Below the pieces are notes generated by a model. That model saw only the letters and a program-made list of their open reading frames with translations, was not told the DNA's origin and made no database searches. 25,093 nt of DNA from a virus (lineage: Duplodnaviria > Heunggongvirae > Uroviricota > Caudoviricetes), in the IMG/VR virus record IMGVR_UViG_2541047854_000006; one strand, 5' to 3'. The position numbers and the translations under genes are program-made. Positions 3,877 to 21,785 of this stretch are shown piece after piece. The number at the start of each line of letters is the position of its first letter. The stretch's first letter is position 1.

Positions 3877-4284
3877 TTATCTTTTATTTGTCCGCTGACG
3901 GGCTTTTAGTAATTCTTCAAAGAGTTTATTGAAGTTTTTTACTCGAGCTCGCATTTCGGCGAGCTGGGTATCCTGTTCTGATTCTGGCAGTGCATTAAAC
4001 AGCTCAAGGAGCTCTAGTTCTTTGGGGGATAAGGTAACTGGCTTCTCAACAGGTGGTGTTGGTTGCTTGTCTTCATCGCCAAATAGAATCCATGTTGGTG
4101 AGCATTGCAATACTTTGCTGAGGGCAAAAAGGTTCTTCCCTGTAGGTTCACTATCACCCCGTTCCCATTGTGATACAGACACATGGGAGATTTTCAGGGC
4201 TTTAGCAAGAGACCTTTGGGTGTGTTTGAGGTTTTTCCGACGATACCTGATGCGTTCGCCGATAGTTAAATTTTTTGTTTCCAT
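3877..4284 (-). CDS. dicA: DicA, cI-like HTH repressor of the prophage immunity region
   Basis: 135-aa protein METKNLTIGERIRYRRKNLKHTQRSLAKALKISHVSVSQWERGDSEPTGKNLFALSKVL... matches my memory of E. coli DicA (XRE-family HTH); divergent from a Cro-like gene. Confidence 0.88.
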   Translation of the reverse strand: METKNLTIGERIRYRRKNLKHTQRSLAKALKISHVSVSQWERGDSEPTGKNLFALSKVLQCSPTWILFGDEDKQPTPPVEKPVTLSPKELELLELFNALPESEQDTQLAEMRARVKNFNKLFEELLKARQRTNKR

Positions 4285-4598: not shown

Positions 4599-4921
4599 AC
4601 AGGCTCGTGAGGCTCTGGATGCCTGGATATGTCGACCAGGAATGACACAGGAGCAGTGGCGATGTATACAACTCCGGCTACGGGTTATTCCCCTCTGAAC
4701 AGGCGCGTAAGGACTGGCAAAACGCCCGCAAAAAACTCTCGAGGGCAAAGGTGAAGAAACCTGCTGTGGTTGATCCGGACCTTATCTGGTCATCACCTGA
4801 CGGAGAAATACGTCGCTACGACAGTCGCCTAAACATAATCTGTCGCGAGTGCCGGAAGAGCGAAGTTATGCAGCGCATACTGGCTTTCTATCAGGGTAAT
4901 TTTCAGGACGTGGCGCAGTGA
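4582..4921 (+). pseudogene. Early-right ORF apparently split by a +1 frameshift (or two short overlapping ORFs)
   Basis: Frame 1 ATG 4582 gives 38 codons ending at TGA 4696..4698; frame 2 is open from 4646 to TGA 4919..4921 (ends in GTGA overlap with next gene). Both frames contain a similar EQAR..DW motif. Alternative: second ORF starts at GTG 4751 with GAGGG RBS. Confidence 0.3.
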
Positions 4922-6606: not shown

Positions 6607-6799
6607 ATACAGCGAACTCCATTGGTTTAGTTGGATATTTACTGTGCTGGACAAAAACGGTTTGCGGGGAAATCTTAGTTAAGTAGAATGACTGCGGGTG
6701 CTTGAGGCTATCTGCCTCGGGCATGGACACCAACGGCAGATAGAGAAAAGCCCCAGTTAACATTACGCGTCCTGCAAGACGCTTAACATTAATCTGAGG

Positions 6800-8500
6800 C
6801 CAATTTCATGCTAGACACATGTAGGTTAGCCTCTTACGTGCCGAAAGGCACGGAGAAGCAGGCTATTGTTAACACCAAGCTGTAATGTCCCCTTTGAACC
6901 ATTCTAAAATGTCCCCAGACAATTCTCTGGGGGATTTTTCATGATCAAAGAGACTGTTACGATGAGTCATAAGGAACTCCACCGACTTCAGATTATTCAG
7001 GAACAAGCTGCGGCACGCATTGGCATTTCTATTCGGCAGGTTAAACGTCTGGTGCAACGGTATAGAAATGAAGGGCCTTCTGGTCTGGTTTCCCACCGAC
7101 GTGGAAAGCGTCCTAATAATTCCTTTTCTACTGAATTCAGAGCAACAGTAATTTCACTCCTCAAAGGCCGTTACGCTGATTTTGGACCTACGTTTGCGTG
7201 CGAAAAATTGCGCGAGATACACGGTTTATCTTTATCCGTTGAAACTCTCAGAAAGTGGATGATAGAAGAGGGGTTATGGCGTGAACGCCGTCGTAAAATT
7301 GCCCGTATATATCAACGCCGCATGCGACGACCATCTTACGGTGAACTGATCCAGATTGATGGCTCACCTCATGACTGGTTTGAAAATCGAGGCCCCAGAT
7401 GTACACTGATCGTTTTCATTGATGATGCCACCAGTGCGTTGATGGCGTTGCGTTTTGTGCCTGCTGAAACAACCCGGGCTTACATGGAAACCCTCCGGGG
7501 TTACCTTAATGATCATGGCGTACCGCTCGCTCTCTACTCTGATAGACACAGTATATTCAGGGTAAATAACCCAGAGCGGGAAGGTGAGCTGACCCAGTTC
7601 ACTCGTGCGATAAAGACACTGGGCATCGAGCCAATCCATGCCAACAGCCCGCAGGCAAAAGGGCGGGTAGAGCGCGCCAATCAGACACTACAGGACAGGC
7701 TGGTCAAAGAAATGCGGCTTCAGAATATCAGTGATATTGAAACAGCAAATGCATGGTTGCCGACCTTTATTGAAGCCTATAACAACCGGTTCGCTACGTC
7801 GCCTCGTACTACTGATAATGCTCATCTTGATGTGCACCATTCTGAAGAGGAACTGGGTTATATCTTCAGCCTACAGGCGAAGCGCGTTCTGTCTAAAAAT
7901 CTCACTTTCCAGTACAAAAGCAGTGCGTTTCAGGTACGCAGTGAGGGCCGGGGATATCGACTTAGGCATTCGGTTGTTACTGTATGCGAGAACTTTGACG
8001 GTGAAATTAACGTTCTGTATGACGGGAAAGCGCTGGGCTGGGAAAAGTATGTTGATGGCCCGGAGCCTATACCACTGGATGATGAAAAGAGTGTCCATGA
8101 ACGAGTGGATAATGCCCGTATTGATTTACGCTCAAAATACTATGTTAAACCTAAAGCTGACCATCCCTGGCTTACGCGCCGAACGCAAAGTCATCAGCAA
8201 GTTAAGCCCCCGAAGTTACCTAAAAAGAAGCCTGATCCCGATAAAAAAGATTGAAACCAAGATCGATTCGGTTGAGTGCATATCCATTCATAGGGTAGAT
8301 TCTTAAGTCGCGTTTCTGGTGTTCATTTTCGGGTGGTTTGTTACTTGTTTTACCGGGGATATGCCAGAAACGCGCTGAGTCAGTCTGGGCGGTGCGCGTA
8401 ATGAGGCGTTATGGTAAATAGCCTATGCTAATGTCCGCTAAGAGCAAGAAGCGGAAGTTGGCAGTTTTGTGGACTGTCCCCACAAAAGTGACTACAGAAA
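6800..8500 (+). mobile_element. Insertion sequence-like element carrying a DDE transposase (boundaries approximate)
   Basis: Single transposase ORF interrupting prophage gene order between early-right remnants and flxA; terminal inverted repeats could not be defined by eye, so ends are estimates. Confidence 0.4.
6941..8254 (+). CDS. DDE transposase with N-terminal HTH and integrase-core (rve) domain, IS481/ISNCY-like
   Basis: 437-aa ORF; N-terminal HTH-like region (AAARIGISIRQVKRLVQRY); catalytic-core motifs LIQIDGSPHDW (D), LYSDRHSIF (D), GRVERANQTLQDRL (E); lysine/proline-rich C-terminal tail. Confidence 0.85.
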   Translation: MIKETVTMSHKELHRLQIIQEQAAARIGISIRQVKRLVQRYRNEGPSGLVSHRRGKRPNNSFSTEFRATVISLLKGRYADFGPTFACEKLREIHGLSLSVETLRKWMIEEGLWRERRRKIARIYQRRMRRPSYGELIQIDGSPHDWFENRGPRCTLIVFIDDATSALMALRFVPAETTRAYMETLRGYLNDHGVPLALYSDRHSIFRVNNPEREGELTQFTRAIKTLGIEPIHANSPQAKGRVERANQTLQDRLVKEMRLQNISDIETANAWLPTFIEAYNNRFATSPRTTDNAHLDVHHSEEELGYIFSLQAKRVLSKNLTFQYKSSAFQVRSEGRGYRLRHSVVTVCENFDGEINVLYDGKALGWEKYVDGPEPIPLDDEKSVHERVDNARIDLRSKYYVKPKADHPWLTRRTQSHQQVKPPKLPKKKPDPDKKD

Positions 8501-10309: not shown

Positions 10310-10379
10310 GAGACCCGGCGGGGGAGAAATCCCTCGCCACCTCTGATGTGGCAGGCATCCTCAACGCACCCGCACTTAA

Positions 10380-10402
10380 CCCGCTTCGGCGGGTTTTTGT
10401 TT
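10380..10402 (+). terminator. Rho-independent terminator after relB-relE-hokD
   Basis: CCCGC-TTCG-GCGGG hairpin followed by TTTTTGTTTTTATTTT. Confidence 0.7.
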
Positions 10403-10477
10403 TTATTTTCAACGCGTTTGAAGTTCTGGACGGTGCCGGAATAGAATCAAAAATACTTAAGTAGCGCGCAGGGATAA

Positions 10478-10753
10478 GAGGGATGGTCCCTTAAGGGTAA
10501 AGGGATTGTTCTGGATGAAAAAAGAACCCGGTTTCATGGCGTACCGGTATATAAGATTTGTGGGCGTTGTAATGGAAACCGGTTTAGTCGTTTACCGACC
10601 ACGCTGGCACGACGTCATGTCCAGAAGCTGGTACCAGACCTGACCGATTATCAGTGGTATAAGGGGTATGCGGACGTCATTGGTAAACTGGTAACAAAGT
10701 GCTGGCAGGAAGAAGCATACGCGGAAGCGCAATTGAGGAAGGTGACGAGATAA
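10478..10753 (+). pseudogene. Q antiterminator remnant (C-terminal about 90 codons, no start codon)
   Basis: Frame open from 10478 with no in-frame ATG; translation ...KICGRCNGNRFSRLPTTLARRHVQKLVPDLTDYQWYKGYADVIGKLVTKCWQEEAYAEAQLRKVTR* aligns with the C-terminus of lambda Q (CGRCKGVGYSRMP...NLTQPTW...CHKEESIADNILNAVTR). Confidence 0.6.
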
Positions 10754-10784
10754 ATGATTTTTGCTGAAGATGGCGACATGATGT

Positions 10785-10813
10785 TTGCATTTTTCAAAAA
10801 ATATGGATAAAAT
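10785..10813 (+). promoter_or_regulatory. Late promoter candidate (PR'-like) immediately downstream of Q remnant
   Basis: TTGCAT-N17-TAAAAT sigma-70-like elements 32 bp after the Q stop, in the position of a lambdoid late promoter. Confidence 0.45.
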
Positions 10814-10862
10814 TTTTTCAACGATGGGCTTTGTATACCCGACGTTAAGAAAAAGTAGAAAA

Positions 10863-10889
10863 CCCGCTGATGAGCGGGTTTTGTGCTTT
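10863..10889 (+). terminator. Rho-independent terminator (tR'-like) downstream of late promoter candidate
   Basis: CCCGC-TGATGA-GCGGG hairpin followed by TTTTGTGCTTT. Confidence 0.55.
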
Positions 10890-11174
10890 AAATGGGGCAA
10901 TGGTAATGTTGAATCTCATCCCGGGACTCATGTCTGTTAACTTATTATTTAGCTGGTGACTTGGTTATTTGCCTGATGTTTAAAATGTTTTCTTCCAGTA
11001 CAATGTCCCTAAACACAATGAGTCTGCTTATTATATTATTAGCAGAGCTATTACGGCCAAAGTACAGCATAAGCTTTTAAAGCCAATCAACCAGTCATCA
11101 AGACAGACGGGGTTATTCATAAAAACTCTCCATGTGTGATCCGATGGGGCCTGAAATTAAAGCTTTAATATAGC

Positions 11175-11387
11175 TCATGAAAGGTAAACATTGGCAGCTG
11201 AAGGGCCACGCAGACCATTTATCCGGCAAAATTCCACGCGTAATCCGGTGGTAATTTCTTCTGCATCGCGGAGATTGAGCGCTGAAACATGAAGCTGGAC
11301 ATCGATACGACCATCGGATGGGGTGATAAGACCCTTGCCGCTTTTGCCGTCAAAGGTTTTGACAATTCCTGTCATTTTACGGGACAA
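11175..11387 (-). CDS. cspF: Cold-shock-domain protein CspF
   Basis: 70-aa protein [70 protein letters not shown]; CSD fold with divergent RNP motifs as in CspF/CspH. Confidence 0.8.
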
Positions 11388-11687
11388 AAAAATTCCTTAA
11401 TACTGATAACTTGGCGCACTATACACACGTTCCTGAAGAAAGCTATAGTTTTTTGATGGGGTTGAAGATGGCTGGATGTCTAAAATAAACATTGCTTCAT
11501 ATGTTCAACTATGCGTTAATGATTGCGTCGGTTTGAAGAACAGACGATATACGAAGTAGTTTACTAAAGCAGTTCTCATTTCAGGTGTTATTCACTTATT
11601 CCTTCTTTGAGTCTCTCCAATTAAGTACGAAGTCGTTTCTGTTATGCAAACCATTTATGCCGAAAGGCTCAAGTTAAGGAATGTAGA

Positions 11688-11903
11688 ATGTCAAATAAAA
11701 TGACTGGTTTAGTAAAATGGTTTAACGCTGATAAAGGTTTCGGCTTTATTTCTCCTGTTGATGGTAGTAAAGATGTGTTTGTGCATTTTTCTGCGATTCA
11801 GAATGATAATTATCGAACCTTATTTGAAGGTCAAAAGGTTACCTTCTCTATAGAGAGTGGTGCTAAAGGTCCTGCAGCAGCAAATGTCATCATTACTGAT
11901 TAA
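11688..11903 (+). CDS. cspB: Cold-shock protein CspB
   Basis: 71-aa protein [71 protein letters not shown]; long AT-rich 5' leader typical of cold-shock genes. Confidence 0.9.
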
Positions 11904-12185
11904 AATTCATCGCTCGTCTGTATACGATAACGAAGAAGGCTGATGCCTGAGTAGAGATACGGACAGAGTAGTGAATATTGGATCTCTTTAATAAAAAGTA
12001 AGGAGGTCCAATACATGAAACAATGGCTAGCATATTTGGCAAAATCTTAATCAGGAAAAGTATGCTAACCATTGTGGTGAAGTGCAGGTTTGCTGCATGA
12101 ATAGTTTTACAGCAGAAGCTAACTGCTGGCATGGCAAAACAAAGTGCGTAAGTGGATGACTCCCACAAAAAGCACCACAATCTCA

Positions 12186-12210
12186 AACCCGCTCAGGCGG
12201 GTTTTTTATT
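12186..12210. terminator. Hairpin terminator (possibly bidirectional) between cspB region and convergent zinc-ribbon ORF
   Basis: AACCCGC-TCAG-GCGGGTT followed by TTTTTTATT on plus strand; complementary strand is followed by TTTGAGATT. Confidence 0.6.
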
Positions 12211-12266
12211 ATCTGCTTTAAATATATTATTAAAATATAAAAAATACTTGTTACTAATAAAATCAA

Positions 12267-12437: not shown

Positions 12438-12656
12438 AGGCTTTTCCTGTATAAATGGCCGTATACAGTACACTAAATATGAAAACATTTCTCGTATTAT
12501 TATTTTATATATGACTTTCTTTCAAAATAATTACCCACATTTTTAATTTGTATGTTTTTTTAGCGCCGTTGAGAACAACGTGTGCTGTCAAAACTACCCC
12601 GTAGACTCCGATCTTTTCAAACATATTGCACCATCCGTGTACATCGGGGTGAGGAT

Positions 12657-12872
12657 ATGAAATCAATGGATAAGTTAACAACAGGTGTTGCCTATGGCAC
12701 ATCGGCGGGTAATGCTGGTTTCTGGGCATTGCAGTTACTCGATAAAGTAACTCCGTCACAGTGGGCTGCAATCGGTGTGCTGGGTAGCCTGGTTTTTGGC
12801 CTGCTGACGTATCTGACAAATCTTTATTTCAAGATTAAAGAAGACAGGCGTAAGGCTGCGAGAGGAGAGTAA
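12657..12872 (+). CDS. Class II holin, phage 21 S-type pinholin with dual-start motif
   Basis: [71 protein letters not shown] closely resembles remembered S21 pinholin; MKSMDK offers two starts (antiholin/holin). Track ORF start 12582 is upstream of the likely RBS-supported start. Confidence 0.85.
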
Positions 12873-12876
12873 TCCA

Positions 12877-13184
12877 ATGACTCAAGACTATGAACTGGTT
12901 GTGAAAGGAGTCCGTAATTTTGAGAATAAAGTTACGGTAACTGTAGCCTTACAGGACAAAGAACGCTTTGACGGTGAAATTTTTGACCTGGATGTCGCCA
13001 TGGACCGTGTTGAAGGAGCTGCGCTGGAGTTTTATGAGGCAGCAGCCAGAAGGAGCGCCCGGCAAGTCTTCCTGGAAGTAGCAGAAAAATTGTCAGAAAA
13101 AGTTGAGTCTTATCTGCAGCATCAGTACTCCTTTAAGATTGAAAATCCTGCCAATAAGCACGAGCGTCCTCATCATAAATATCT

Positions 13185-13188
<4 letters not shown>
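12877..13188 (+). CDS. ydfR: YdfR-like protein of unknown function located between holin and endolysin
   Basis: 103-aa protein MTQDYELVVKGVRNFENKVTVTVALQDKERFDGEIFDLDVAMDRVEGAALEFYEAAARRS... matches my memory of Qin YdfR; stop overlaps endolysin start (ATGA). Confidence 0.6.
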
Positions 13189-14212
<1,024 letters not shown>

Positions 14213-14574
14213 GGTAATATTAAATCGGAACATTTACATCGCGGAATGTAAAATTTAAATAAAAAGGACTCTTCCATGAGCCAAAATTCCTGAAATCTTA
14301 AGGGTAAGATAAAAGGTCTTAATCAGAATGACACGTTTTATTAATAAATAAAGCTATTCTTTCATTGCTGTGTTTTTCTTTACAAAAGTAATCCTTGCTA
14401 TGGGTGGTTAATCATGCGTTAATGGTGTTCTGGTTTGTTACAAATTTATCTGAAGCAGTCATTGTTATAATTTTATTATTTGTACCTCTTGAGATTTCCT
14501 TGTTGGTTTTTCTCTCTGATATTTTTTTTCGGACCATTCTGCCCAAGGGCTAATTTCTTCAAAAGGTAATAATT

Positions 14575-14787
14575 ATGTCTAACAAAATGACTGGTTTAGT
14601 GAAATGGTTTAACCCTGAAAAAGGTTTTGGTTTCATCACGCCGAAAGATGGCAGCAAAGATGTGTTTGTCCATTTCTCAGCAATTCAGAGCAACGATTTC
14701 AAAACATTAACTGAGAATCAGGAAGTTGAATTTGGTATTGAGAACGGACCTAAAGGTCCTGCCGCTGTTCATGTAGTGGCGCTTTGA
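14575..14787 (+). CDS. cspI: Cold-shock protein CspI
   Basis: 70-aa protein [70 protein letters not shown]; preceded by about 350 bp AT-rich leader. Confidence 0.9.
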
Positions 14788-14993
14788 GGTAGACAATATT
14801 ACAAACCATATTCACTTTAGATGCCCGTGTTGTCATGGTTCCCAGTATAGAACATCATCTTTTGATGTTTCTGACATGAATCCTTTCGGGGCAAAATGTA
14901 TCTTTTGTAAATCAATGATGATTACATTTGATAATATTTCACAATACTTAAATGCCAGCCGTCTGTCGTTGGATTTAAAAAAGTGAAAATGAA

Positions 14994-16875: not shown

Positions 16876-17421
16876 ATGGAAGTCAACAAAAAGCAGCTGG
16901 CTGACATTTTCGGTGCGAGTATCCGTACCATTCAGAACTGGCAGGAACAGGGAATGCCCGTTCTGCGAGGCGGTGGCAAGGGTAATGAGGTGCTTTATGA
17001 CTCTGCCGCCGTTATAAGATGGTATGCCGAAAGGGATGCTGAAATTGAGAACGAAAAGCTGCGCCGGGAAGTTGAAGAACTGCGGCAGGCCAGCGAGACA
17101 GATCTCCAGCCAGGGACTATTGAGTACGAACGCCATCGACTTACGCGTGCGCAGGCCGACGCACAGGAGCTGAAAAATGCCAGAGACTCCGCTGAAGTGG
17201 TGGAAACCGCATTCTGTACTTTCGTGCTGTCGCGGATCGCAGGTGAAATTGCCAGTATTCTCGACGGGATCCCCCTGTCGGTGCAGCGGCGTTTTCCGGA
17301 ACTGGAAAACCGACATGTTGATTTCCTGAAACGGGATATCATCAAAGCCATGAACAAAGCAGCCGCGCTGGATGAACTGATACCGGGGTTGCTGAGTGAA
17401 TATATCGAACAGTCAGGTTAA
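16876..17421 (+). CDS. Terminase small subunit, lambda Nu1 homolog
   Basis: 181-aa protein MEVNKKQLADIFGASIRTIQNWQEQGMPVLRGGGKGNEVLYDSAAV... essentially lambda Nu1. Confidence 0.92.
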   Translation: MEVNKKQLADIFGASIRTIQNWQEQGMPVLRGGGKGNEVLYDSAAVIRWYAERDAEIENEKLRREVEELRQASETDLQPGTIEYERHRLTRAQADAQELKNARDSAEVVETAFCTFVLSRIAGEIASILDGIPLSVQRRFPELENRHVDFLKRDIIKAMNKAAALDELIPGLLSEYIEQSG

Positions 17422-18406
17422 CAGGCTGCGGCATTTTGTCCGCGCCGGGCTTCGCTCACTGTTCAGGCCGGAGCCACAGACCGCCGTTGAATGGGCGGAT
17501 GCTAATTACTATCTCCCGAAAGAATCCGCATACCAGGAAGGGCGCTGGGAAACACTGCCCTTTCAGCGGGCCATCATGAATGCGATGGGCAGCGACTACA
17601 TCCGTGAGGTGAATGTGGTGAAGTCTGCCCGTGTCGGTTATTCCAAAATGCTGCTGGGTGTTTATGCCTACTTTATAGAGCATAAGCAGCGCAACACCCT
17701 TATCTGGTTGCCGACGGATGGTGATGCCGAGAACTTTATGAAAACCCACGTTGAGCCGACCATCCGCGATATTCCGTCGCTGCTGGCGCTGGCTCCGTGG
17801 TATGGCAAAAAGCACCGGGATAACACGCTCACTATGAAGCGTTTTTCCAATGGTCGTGGCTTCTGGTGCCTGGGCGGTAAAGCGGCAAAAAACTACCGTG
17901 AAAAGTCGGTGGATGTGGCGGGTTATGATGAACTTGCTGCCTTTGATGAGGATATTGAACAGGAAGGCTCTCCGACGTTCCTTGGCGACAAACGTATTGA
18001 AGGCTCGGTCTGGCCAAAGTCCATCCGTGGCTCCACGCCCAAAGTGAGAGGCACCTGCCAGATTGAGCGTGCAGCCAGTGAATCCCTGCATTTTATGCGT
18101 TTTCATGTTGCCTGCCCGCACTGCGGGGAGGAGCAGTATCTTAAATTTGGCGACAAAGAGACGCCGTTTGGCCTCAAATGGACGCCGGATGACCCCTCCA
18201 GCGTGTTTTATCTCTGCGAGCATAATGCCTGCGTCATCCGCCAGCAGGAGCTGGACTTTACTGATGCCCGTTATATCTGCGAAAAGACCGGGATCTGGAC
18301 CCGTGATGGCATTCTCTGGTTTTCGTCAACCGCGTTGCGTCATCCGCGATATCGCAGTCTGCGTCACAGGTTGCCCGTGAGACAAAGGTACGCCGGAAAC
18401 TGGTAA
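17396..18406 (+). pseudogene. Terminase large subunit (lambda A) N-terminal fragment, truncated by internal deletion
   Basis: Matches lambda gpA from MNISNSQVNRLRHF... through ...TGIWTRDGILWFSS (about 308 aa), then diverges into 25 unrelated codons and stops; full gpA is about 641 aa. Confidence 0.85.
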
Positions 18407-18819
18407 AGGAAAGGGCCAGGCTGAAAAGGGCCACGGTCAAAAATCCGCAGGCCAGAATCAGGGTTAACCGGGGGGATTTGCCCGTAATCAAGCTGGGTAA
18501 TGCGCGGGTTGTCCTGTCCCGCCGCAGGCGTCGTAAAAAGGGGCAGCGTTCATCCCTGAAAGGTGGCGGCAGCGTGCTTGTGGTGGGAAACCGTCGTATT
18601 CCCGGCGCGTTTATTCAGCAACTGAAAAATGGCCGGTGGCATGTCATGCAGCGTGTGGCCGGGAAAAACCGTTACCCCATTGATGTGGTGAAAATCCCGA
18701 TGGCGGTGCCGCTGACCACGGCGTTTAAACAGAATATTGAGCGGATACGGCGTGAGCGTCTTCCGAAAGAGCTGGGCTATGCGCTGCAGCATCAACTGAG
18801 AATGGTAATAAAGCGATGA
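18307..18819 (+). pseudogene. Tail completion protein (lambda Z) C-terminal fragment lacking a start
   Basis: Frame open from 18307; C-terminal 113-aa ORF (18478..18819) ends in ATGA overlap with U exactly as Z/U in lambda; upstream in-frame codons lack an ATG. Deletion junction with A lies near 18320. Confidence 0.6.
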
Positions 18820-19211
18820 AACATACTGAACTCCGTGCAGCCGTACTGGATGCACTGGAGAAGCATGACACCGGGGCGACGCTTTTTGATGGTCGCCCCG
18901 CTGTTTTTGATGAGGAAGATTTTCCGGCAGTTGCCGTTTATCTCACCGGCGCTGAATACACGGGCGAAGAGCTGGACAGCGATACCTGGCAGGCGGAGCT
19001 GCATATTGAAGTTTTCCTGCCTGCTCAGGTGCCGGATTCAGAGCTGGATTCGTGGATGGAGTCCCGGATTTATCCGGTGATGAGCGATATCCCGGCACTG
19101 TCAGATTTGATCACCAGTATGGTGGCCAGTGGCTATGACTACCGGCGCGACGATGATGCGGGCCTGTGGAGTTCAGCCGATCTGACTTATGTCATTACCT
19201 ATGAAATGTGA
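18816..19211 (+). CDS. Tail terminator protein, lambda U homolog
   Basis: 131-aa protein [67 protein letters not shown]... matches lambda gpU. Confidence 0.9.
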
Positions 19212-21210: not shown

Positions 21211-21785
21211 TGGCATTCAGAATGAGTGAACAACCACGGACCATAAAAATTTATAATCTGCTGGCCGGAACTAATGAATTTATTGGTGAAGGTGATGCAT
21301 ATATTCCGCCTCATACAGGTCTGCCAGCAAACAGTACCGATATTGCACCGCCAGATATTCCGGCTGGCTTCGTGGCTGTTTTCAACAGTGATGAGTCATC
21401 GTGGCATCTCGTTGAAGATCATCGGGGTAAAACGGTTTATGACGTGGCTTCCGGCGACGCGTTATTTATTTCTGAACTCGGTCCGTTACCGGAAAATGTT
21501 ACCTGGTTATCGCCGGAAGGGGAGTTTCAGAAGTGGAACGGCACAGCCTGGGTGAAGGATACGGAAGCAGAAAAACTGTTCCGGATCCGGGAGGCGGAAG
21601 AAACAAAAAACAACCTGATGCAGGTAGCCAGTGAGCATATTGCGCCGCTTCAGGATGCTGCAGATCTGGAAATTGCAACGGAGGAAGAAATCTCGTTGCT
21701 GGAAGCATGGAAAAAGTATCGGGTATTGCTGAACCGTGTTGATACGTCAACTGCACAGGATATTGAATGGCCAGCACTGCCGTAG
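21210..21785 (+). CDS. Tail fiber assembly protein (Tfa family)
   Basis: 191-aa ORF starting in TAATG overlap with the fibre gene; [51 protein letters not shown]... typical of lambda Tfa / P2 G chaperones. Confidence 0.85.

Follow-up and report, generated by a model that had tools for sequence, protein, structure and literature searches.

A Qin-like prophage locus of Escherichia coli with a truncated quuQ antiterminator gene and a retained late promoter, pause element, and terminator

A Q-dependent late cassette is composed of a Q gene, the late promoter PR', a sigma-dependent pause element, a terminator, and the downstream genes (PMC9388147). When Q is missing, RNA polymerase pauses and then terminates, leaving the downstream genes untranscribed (PMC9388147; PMC7547250). 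The Q-lambda family of antiterminators (PF03589) is one of three unrelated Q families (PMC9388147). Structural work on Q-lambda has assigned residues 61-113 and 153-207 to a four-helix body, with a helix-turn-helix (HTH) in H4-H5 that contacts positions 1-4 of the Q-binding element (QBE), and residues 114-152 to a zinc-ribbon arm; residues 1-44 refold into a nozzle at the RNA exit channel, which is needed for antitermination (PMC9388147). Within lambda PR', the sequence AACGAT at +1 to +6 is a -10-like element that is rebound by sigma-70, generating the pause at +16 that Q requires for loading, and the GGG that follows AACGAT is a discriminator-like enhancer of this pause (PMC4005639). In the case of the lambda 6S RNA, StxS of the Stx phages, and IsrK of Gifsy-1, a constitutive late promoter and a near terminator yield a short RNA when there is no active Q (PMC7547250; PMC4825925).

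A member of this family, quuQ (ydfT), is present in the Qin prophage of E. coli K-12 MG1655, where hokD is followed by rem, a small ORF, ydfU (DUF968), and the 250-aa ydfT/quuQ gene. Full-length QuuQ matches the Q-lambda structures 7ubm, 7ubn, and 4mo1 with an E value of 4.6e-36; QuuQ residues 1-120 align with Q-lambda 1-125, and QuuQ residues 160-250 align with Q-lambda 117-207. QuuQ differs from the lambda protein by an insertion of ~40 aa and by the presence of four CxxCxGxG motifs (CEHC, CQHC, CRGC, and CGRC, a set that also matches the DnaJ zinc-finger model) rather than lambda's two CxxC motifs. In the literature on quuQ/ydfT and rrrQ/essQ/rzpQ, K-12 included, a search turned up no work on the function of QuuQ and none on late transcription in Qin.

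The stretch of DNA analyzed here (the window, 25,093 nt) is closely related to this K-12 locus. Its gene order is flxA, ydfV, relB, relE, hokD, a Q remnant, cspF (minus strand), cspB, ynfU (minus strand), essD, ydfR, rrrQ, rzpQ, and cspI; thus, as in K-12, relBE and hokD lie upstream of the Q sequence, and cspF, cspB, ynfU, essD, ydfR, rrrQ, and rzpQ lie downstream. From position 10492 to at least 14700 the window is 99.95-100% identical to the K-12 MG1655 Qin locus, and on the left flank the K-12 alignment is unbroken up to 10494. Gene content and identity mark the window as an E. coli cryptic lambdoid prophage resembling Qin. The segment 10100-11200 is also 100% identical to four complete E. 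coli chromosomes (FORC_082, NCCP12480, B-JRPT-4119, and O15_8X). Relative to FORC_082, the window has a second deletion, of 1.59 kb, at ~4654; among complete E. coli genomes, none combines this second deletion with the Q junction described below. The features of the locus are collected in Table 1.

Table 1. Positions of the features of the truncated quuQ locus and of the genes downstream (coordinates are those of the window).
Feature	Position	Strand	Basis
Intrinsic terminator after hokD, last feature of the left flank	10378..10402	+	Terminator scan; unchanged relative to K-12
In-frame non-Q extension (hokD-rem intergenic DNA), 14 nt	10478..10491	+	Frame translation; breakpoint mapping
Deletion junction, TAA (3-bp microhomology)	10492..10494		Breakpoint mapping against K-12
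quuQ/ydfT pseudogene remnant, QuuQ residues 165-250 plus stop	10495..10753	+	PF03589 match; Q-lambda alignment; lacks a start codon
-35 element (TTGCAT) of PR'-type late promoter	10785..10790	+	Direct reading; aligned to lambda TTGACT; invariant in 15 quuQ-linked cassettes
17-nt spacer TTTTCAAAAAATATGGA, candidate Q-binding element	10791..10807	+	Located between -35 and -10, as is the lambda QBE
-10 hexamer (TAAAAT) of PR'	10808..10813	+	Direct reading; lambda alignment
Sigma-70-dependent pause element AACGAT plus discriminator-like GGG (AACGATGGG)	10820..10828	+	Identical to lambda PR' +1 to +9
Predicted short PR'-tR' transcript, ~64-70 nt	10820..10889	+	Inferred from promoter, fold, conservation, and the cassette model (PMC9388147)
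tR'-type intrinsic terminator, stem 10859-10868/10873-10882, loop GATG, U-tract to 10889	10859..10889	+	Fold; conservation in cassettes
Second intrinsic terminator downstream of PR', located past cspB and ahead of the lysis genes	12185..12212	+	Terminator scan
Sigma-70 promoter-like sequence TTTATA-16-AATAAT, 126 nt upstream of the holin gene	12504..12531	+	Promoter scan
essD/essQ, P21-type holin	12657-12872	+	Identical to K-12 protein
ydfR	12877-13188	+	Open
rrrQ, lysozyme	13185-13718	+	Identical to K-12 protein
rzpQ (Rz)	13715-14212	+	Identical to K-12 protein

K-12 and the window differ in the Q gene: K-12 has the full 250-aa gene after rem and ydfU, whereas the window has codons 165-250 only. 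A first, sequence-only reading of this DNA had described the region as about 90 C-terminal codons of a lambda Q-like protein, running from a CGRC zinc-binding motif onward and lacking a start codon. The likeness to Q is borne out: the remnant peptide, which reads EGWSLKGKGIVLDEKRTRFHGVPVYKICGRCNGN...AQLRKVTR (the third frame from 10442), matches the Pfam family PF03589 (Antitermination protein Q) at E=8e-28 and 96.9 bits (cutoff 26.7) over model positions 9-87 of 87, and from 10492 on, the nucleotide sequence and the 3' end of K-12 ydfT/quuQ share 100% identity. On these alignments, the remnant is a homologue of the Q-lambda family antiterminators. The length needs a correction. The open frame, 10478-10750, does contain 91 sense codons between an upstream stop at 10475-10477 and the TAA stop at 10751-10753, but the portion derived from Q (from 10492/10495 to 10753) amounts to 86 codons plus the stop, since the first 14 nt of the frame are intergenic DNA. 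Likewise, CGRC is indeed retained, and can now be placed as the last of the four QuuQ CxxC motifs.

The remnant corresponds to Q-lambda residues ~122-207, a span that takes in the latter half of the zinc-ribbon arm and, in the body, the C-terminal half with HTH helices H4-H5. The parts that precede these in a functional Q are gone with codons 1-164. Both the N-terminal nozzle (Q-lambda 1-44) and body helices H1-H2 (61-113) are missing, and the zinc ribbon, which would need its CxxC knuckles in pairs, is incomplete; the junction lies just past CRGC, so that the first knuckle is lost and CGRC stands alone. Nor is there a complete ORF with a start codon. The sequence-only reading had likewise reported no start codon; the first ATG, GTG, or TTG is a TTG at frame codon 86 of 91, six codons ahead of the stop. 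An intact Q that might be recovered through another start or frame was sought in all three forward frames, and none was found: the other two forward frames of 10440-10760 are crowded with stops and offer neither an alternative start nor a frameshifted continuation of Q. (A 45-aa ORF at 10506-10643 lies in another frame and has no relation to Q.) Because the start codon, the nozzle, H1-H2, and three of the four CxxC zinc motifs are all missing, the remnant is to be regarded as a dead pseudogene. This call is in keeping with public annotation: in FORC_082, PGAP labels the equivalent of 10493-10753 'antitermination protein; incomplete; partial in the middle of a contig; missing N-terminus'. The truncation is therefore already recorded, as a pseudogene call in the identical alleles, and the core of the finding is already public.

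One could imagine that the stub is nevertheless translated, from a non-canonical start or by read-in, and that the resulting truncated HTH protein sits on the QBE as a decoy or repressor. The region equivalent to the H4-H5 HTH is retained, and a promoter-like site at 10418-10447 could transcribe it. However, the lack of a usable start codon, the stop directly upstream of the frame, and the pseudogene call by PGAP all stand against translation, and half of the four-helix bundle is gone together with the first zinc knuckle, making a stable fold unlikely. We give this idea very little credence.

Comparison with K-12 indicates how the gene was lost. The window tracks K-12 as far as L001:1317 (window 10494) and picks up again at L001:3501 (window 10492); the overlap is a TAA that is common to the hokD-rem intergenic region (K-12 L001:1315-1317) and to quuQ (L001:3501-3503). 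Absent from the window are 2,186 bp of the K-12 arrangement, comprising rem, the small hypothetical ORF, ydfU, and quuQ codons 1-164. A single illegitimate, microhomology-mediated deletion of 2,186 bp thus fused hokD-rem intergenic DNA to quuQ codon 165. Among the matches listed, the identical junction is found in four complete E. coli genomes, and because these are independent assemblies of the same junction, an assembly artefact has been ruled out.

Downstream of the stub, starting 32 nt past its stop codon, is the sequence that the earlier reading had proposed as a TTGCAT-N17-TAAAAT promoter. It is found where that reading placed it, and its resemblance to lambda PR' is extensive. The lambda promoter has the arrangement TTGACT - TATTGAATAAAATTGGG - TAAATT - TGACTC - AACGATGGG, and that of the window TTGCAT - TTTTCAAAAAATATGGA - TAAAAT - TTTTTC - AACGATGGG. 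The -35 elements and spacers are similar (~12 of 18 spacer positions are shared with lambda), and AACGATGGG occupies +1 to +9, starting 6 nt past the -10 hexamer exactly as in lambda. This supplies the qut-like site whose presence near the promoter had been suggested as a check; the other check, alignment to lambda Q, gave the similarity described above. By homology with lambda, transcription would start at 10820. The spacer is a candidate Q-binding element. There are also differences. In lambda, a -35-like TTGACT that aids Q loading is located just upstream of the pause element; in the window, TTTTTT is found at the same place. In addition, the terminator lies at ~+40 to +70 in the window versus ~+194 in lambda, the window has cold-shock genes between the terminator and the lysis genes, and its Q gene is truncated. 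What is shared with the lambda Q/PR'/6S RNA/tR' system is the protein family (PF03589) and the succession of elements, from gene through promoter and pause element to terminator.

Promoter-like hexamers are common enough that their presence carries little weight on its own: 10 are found in the region versus 6.5 +/- 2.1 expected, which is not above chance. This count would fit a reading in which promoter and terminator arose by coincidence, or in which the hairpin merely ends the convergent cspF transcript, and there is no late cassette at all; so would the terminator scan, where only the minus strand gave a score for the hairpin. Against this, the site is made credible by its homology to lambda PR', including an exact copy of the lambda pause element AACGATGGG at the same 6-nt spacing from the -10 hexamer (this 9-mer occurs once in the window versus 0.15 occurrences expected), and the unit, with a plus-strand U-tract, is kept behind quuQ-type genes that lack cspF and have unrelated neighbors. 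A chance origin seems to us scarcely tenable. The minus-strand score itself is explained by an A-tract upstream of the hairpin, which makes the hairpin bidirectional, so that it would also serve as a terminator for transcripts arriving from the convergent cspF side.

The conservation of the unit was examined in 80 viral contigs that encode QuuQ relatives at 94-100% amino-acid identity. The 170 nt downstream of the gene in these contigs fall into 25 sequence variants, from which 15 representative cassettes were aligned. A promoter-pause-terminator unit is kept behind every quuQ-type gene examined (80 in viral contigs). In the 15 cassettes TTGCAT does not vary, the spacer, TTTTCAAAAAAT.TGG, is nearly invariant, and the -10 element is TA(A/G)(A/G)AT. 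The pause element, AACGATGGGC, is kept in the quuQ-linked cassettes with occasional single substitutions at the first or third base, and ~40 nt further on, in all cassette variants, there is a hairpin followed by a plus-strand U-tract. The sequence of the hairpin varies, with compensatory changes at three pairs. Past the U-tract the sequences are unrelated, marking a mosaic boundary; the neighbors downstream differ, and cspF is not among them. From these alignments, the promoter-pause-terminator unit is one that travels with the Q gene, and the promoter in the window is a true PR' homologue, cognate to the quuQ-type Q. As read from its sequence, the locus has what a Q-dependent cassette would call for: a promoter right after the Q gene, a -10-like pause element, an intrinsic terminator, and lysis genes on the same strand.

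The terminator, which the first reading had also proposed, is well supported as the cognate tR'. The 73-nt stretch 10820-10892 folds at -30.4 kcal/mol, compared with -13.4 +/- 2.8 for shuffled sequences (z=-6.1), and the compensatory changes in relatives are as expected for a hairpin that is maintained. The U-tract that follows the hairpin, UUUUGUGCUUU, is interrupted, so some read-through is possible and termination may be incomplete. Without Q, the expected sole product of the late promoter would be the short PR'-tR' RNA.

Such an RNA, predicted at ~65-70 nt, would be of the same kind as 6S RNA, StxS, and IsrK, but it has no sequence or covariance-model similarity to them. Searches of Rfam, using the whole window at gathering thresholds and the segments 10400-11200 and 10780-10920 at permissive E values, returned no family matches; sub-threshold matches (amino-acid leaders, isrK, P9, and OrzO-P) were rejected as terminator-driven. 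Short PR' RNAs are regulatory in Stx phages and in Gifsy-1 (PMC7547250; PMC4825925), and the predicted RNA has two stable hairpins, of which the 5' hairpin (10820-10846) and the terminator are kept across divergent cassettes. It might be proposed, then, that the RNA of the window is a functional sRNA like StxS or IsrK, and that its retention after the loss of Q reflects selection. We consider this unlikely. Overlap with the pause element is enough to explain why the 5' part is conserved; there is no Rfam family, and as a member of isrK (RF01394) the RNA scores 16.6 bits against a gathering score of 50, in a match that rests on the terminator; and the deletion alleles are recent (99.9-100% identity), so retention is uninformative about selection.

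Taken together, these comparisons make it very probable that the locus is the Q-dependent late cassette of a Qin-like prophage, in which Q has been decapitated by a deletion that left the cis elements untouched. Under this explanation, RNA polymerase would still start at ~10820 and pause near +16; with no Q to load, it would terminate at 10879-10889, producing the short RNA of ~65-70 nt alone. Q-modified, terminator-resistant transcription would no longer reach cspB and essD-ydfR-rrrQ-rzpQ, and any remaining expression of the lysis genes would need local promoters or a compatible Q in trans.

The lysis cassette (12657..14212) is itself entirely open, its products matching Pfam families PF04971, PF07041, PF00959, and PF10721; it is located 1.8 kb downstream of tR', with cspF, cspB, and ynfU inserted in between. 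The sequence-only reading took it to be probably silent. Given the cassette model in PMC9388147, silence is textbook-plausible. The lysis genes need not depend on PR' only, however, because a sigma-70 site upstream of essD has been reported by genomic SELEX: the hexamers and spacing seen at 12504-12531 recur in its list of constitutive RpoD promoters, where they are assigned to essQ-rrrQ-ydfP and carry an HNS mark (PMC3946193). The lysis genes may thus have a Q-independent, H-NS-silenced promoter at this position. The loss of Q might then fail to silence the cassette, either because this promoter serves it or because a Q-lambda-family protein is supplied by another prophage. Genes of the quuQ type are common enough for the second route, occurring in 2471 of 5426 complete E. 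coli genomes at up to five places in each. Genomic SELEX, on the other hand, reports binding of holoenzyme in vitro rather than expression, and in FORC_082, which has the same allele, one place alone matches the 3' end of Q plus PR'. On balance, continued expression by either route is possible, if somewhat unlikely; it touches the consequence of the truncation and not the identity of the feature.

A survey of those 5426 complete E. coli genomes places the allele in its population. In 2415 of the 2471 genomes with a quuQ-type gene and PR', at least 80% of Q plus PR' is present in one piece, leaving ~56 that are partial; the whole hokD-to-cspF block as in K-12 is found in 1430 genomes. Among the matches listed, eight further genomes carry five other deletions in which the 5' end of quuQ has been lost and PR' and tR' are kept. 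These alleles (in MSB1_9I, FORC_081, N61, MB06021, SCZE5, and others) are independent hokD-to-quuQ-3' deletions that retain PR', the pause element, and tR' like the allele of the window, and PGAP labels all of them, too, as partial antitermination proteins; they differ in their breakpoints and in the length of Q that is left (652, 400, 325, 178, or 162 nt versus 262 nt in the window). The left breakpoints pair up, at K-12 L001 1316/1317 and 1415/1416, because of short imperfect repeats at the breakpoints. These repeats suffice, and with no IS at the junctions an IS-mediated or site-specific origin of the paired breakpoints was rejected. The IS1-containing variants H13-H17 were set aside as cases of Q loss; in these, IS1 is downstream of tR' and Q is intact.

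The recurrence of such deletions invites a reading in which decapitation of Q, with PR', the pause, and tR' kept, is a recurrent, selected form of domestication that disarms the lysis switch and preserves a useful PR'-derived small RNA. In its support, microhomology-mediated deletions have taken away the 5' end of quuQ independently at least six times, each time sparing the short PR' unit, and the left breakpoints fall into pairs. Nevertheless, these deletions are not taken as evidence of selection against Q, because the search demanded both flanks and was biased by this requirement, and because an intact Q is the rule (2415/2471). Selected domestication seems to us decidedly improbable. Rather, the decapitated Q of the window is ordinary decay of a cryptic prophage, with no new mechanism.

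The importance of the locus is small beyond its correct annotation. With regard to annotation, a caution is in order: the 87-position Pfam model spans the C-terminal region only, so that a dead stub scores as near-full-length (positions 9-87) and could pass for an intact Q in domain-based calls of prophage completeness. For the biology of the Qin late region, the locus is a clean natural case of a Q-dependent late cassette minus its trans factor, with every cis element kept, and strains with this allele would be usable as natural Q-null controls for the short RNA, for QuuQ activity, and for Q-independent expression of the Qin lysis genes.

Loss of the 5' end of quuQ, the gene for the lambda-type Q antiterminator, with retention of the late promoter PR' and its terminator tR', has occurred in at least the complete genomes of five other E. 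coli strains (MSB1_9I, FORC_081, N61, SCZE5 and MB06021; window-equivalent 10400-10760), through five more independent deletions. The left breakpoints of these deletions fall into two pairs, 1 nt apart (1316/1317 and 1415/1416 in the K-12 Qin locus, L001), while the right breakpoints differ; the breakpoints carry short imperfect repeats, such as GCGTTGAAAATGGAAA versus GCGTTGTAATGGAAA. Separately, IS1 insertions are seen near quuQ in E. coli TKEC21-59 and EC23. One of the two IS1 sites lies between tR' and cspF and leaves Q intact (five genomes among the matches listed); the other is within quuQ itself.

Relative to the Q protein of lambda, the complete QuuQ of K-12 (L001:3010-3762) contains an insertion of ~40 amino acids. 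QuuQ has four CxxCxGxG motifs, and its residues 148-193 match the Pfam family DnaJ_CXXCXGXG. Taken together, the insertion, the motifs and the family match suggest that the QuuQ arm is a two-zinc structure, in contrast to the single zinc ribbon of lambda.

In the predicted PR' RNA, the 27 nt at the 5' end are expected to fold into a hairpin, AACG.UGGG...CCCG.CGUU, which is retained in divergent quuQ cassettes with changes that are one-sided only. Because the pause element overlaps this hairpin, RNA structure may not be the cause of its conservation. Two further promoter-like sites are listed in the table. The hexamers of the site upstream of the holin gene, TTTATA and AATAAT, also appear in a table of RpoD genomic SELEX (PMC3946193), in the entry for essQ-rrrQ-ydfP, which carries an HNS mark. 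The other site stands upstream of rem in K-12; after the deletion, transcription from it would instead run into the Q remnant and onward to tR'.

Features of the window outside the quuQ remnant and PR'
Feature	Position	Strand	Basis or setting
dicA	3877-4284	minus	
sok antitoxin RNA	6696-6867	+	Rfam match, 104 bits
ISNCY-like transposase ORF, 437 aa	6941-8254	+	HTH and rve_3
Promoter-like site TTGAAG-18-TAGAAT	10418-10447		directly after hokD terminator
5' hairpin of predicted PR' RNA	10820-10846		predicted fold
cspA-type thermoregulator leaders before cspB and cspI, and IS009 RNA	11527-11919, 14429-14814, 21553-21751		Rfam
Promoter-like site TTTATA-16-AATAAT	12504-12531		upstream of holin gene; hexamers match PMC3946193 entry

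Relative to FORC_082, a complete genome that shares the quuQ junction, the window also lacks ~1.59 kb at about 4654-4656 (L002 4968-6555 in FORC_082). The missing segment includes the bulk of a gene for a YdaT-family toxin, a hypothetical gene, and the 5' part of a DUF977 gene; the junction that its loss left in the window was found in none of 5426 complete E. coli genomes. The dicA gene is intact in the window but frameshifted in FORC_082. The sok match lies 74 nt upstream of the transposase ORF, which PGAP annotates as partial in FORC_082, and no recognisable hok ORF is present near sok; 6696-8254 may represent a hok/sok locus broken by an IS element.

Within the late region, the csp genes with their leaders and the IS009 RNA are insertions. 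In the near-identical FORC_082 annotation, the gene for the large terminase subunit, with a cut C-terminus, directly adjoins a tail gene with a cut N-terminus (window ~17390-18820; L002 19296-20718). Consequently, the head and morphogenesis genes have been removed by a large deletion, which is another sign that this prophage is defective.
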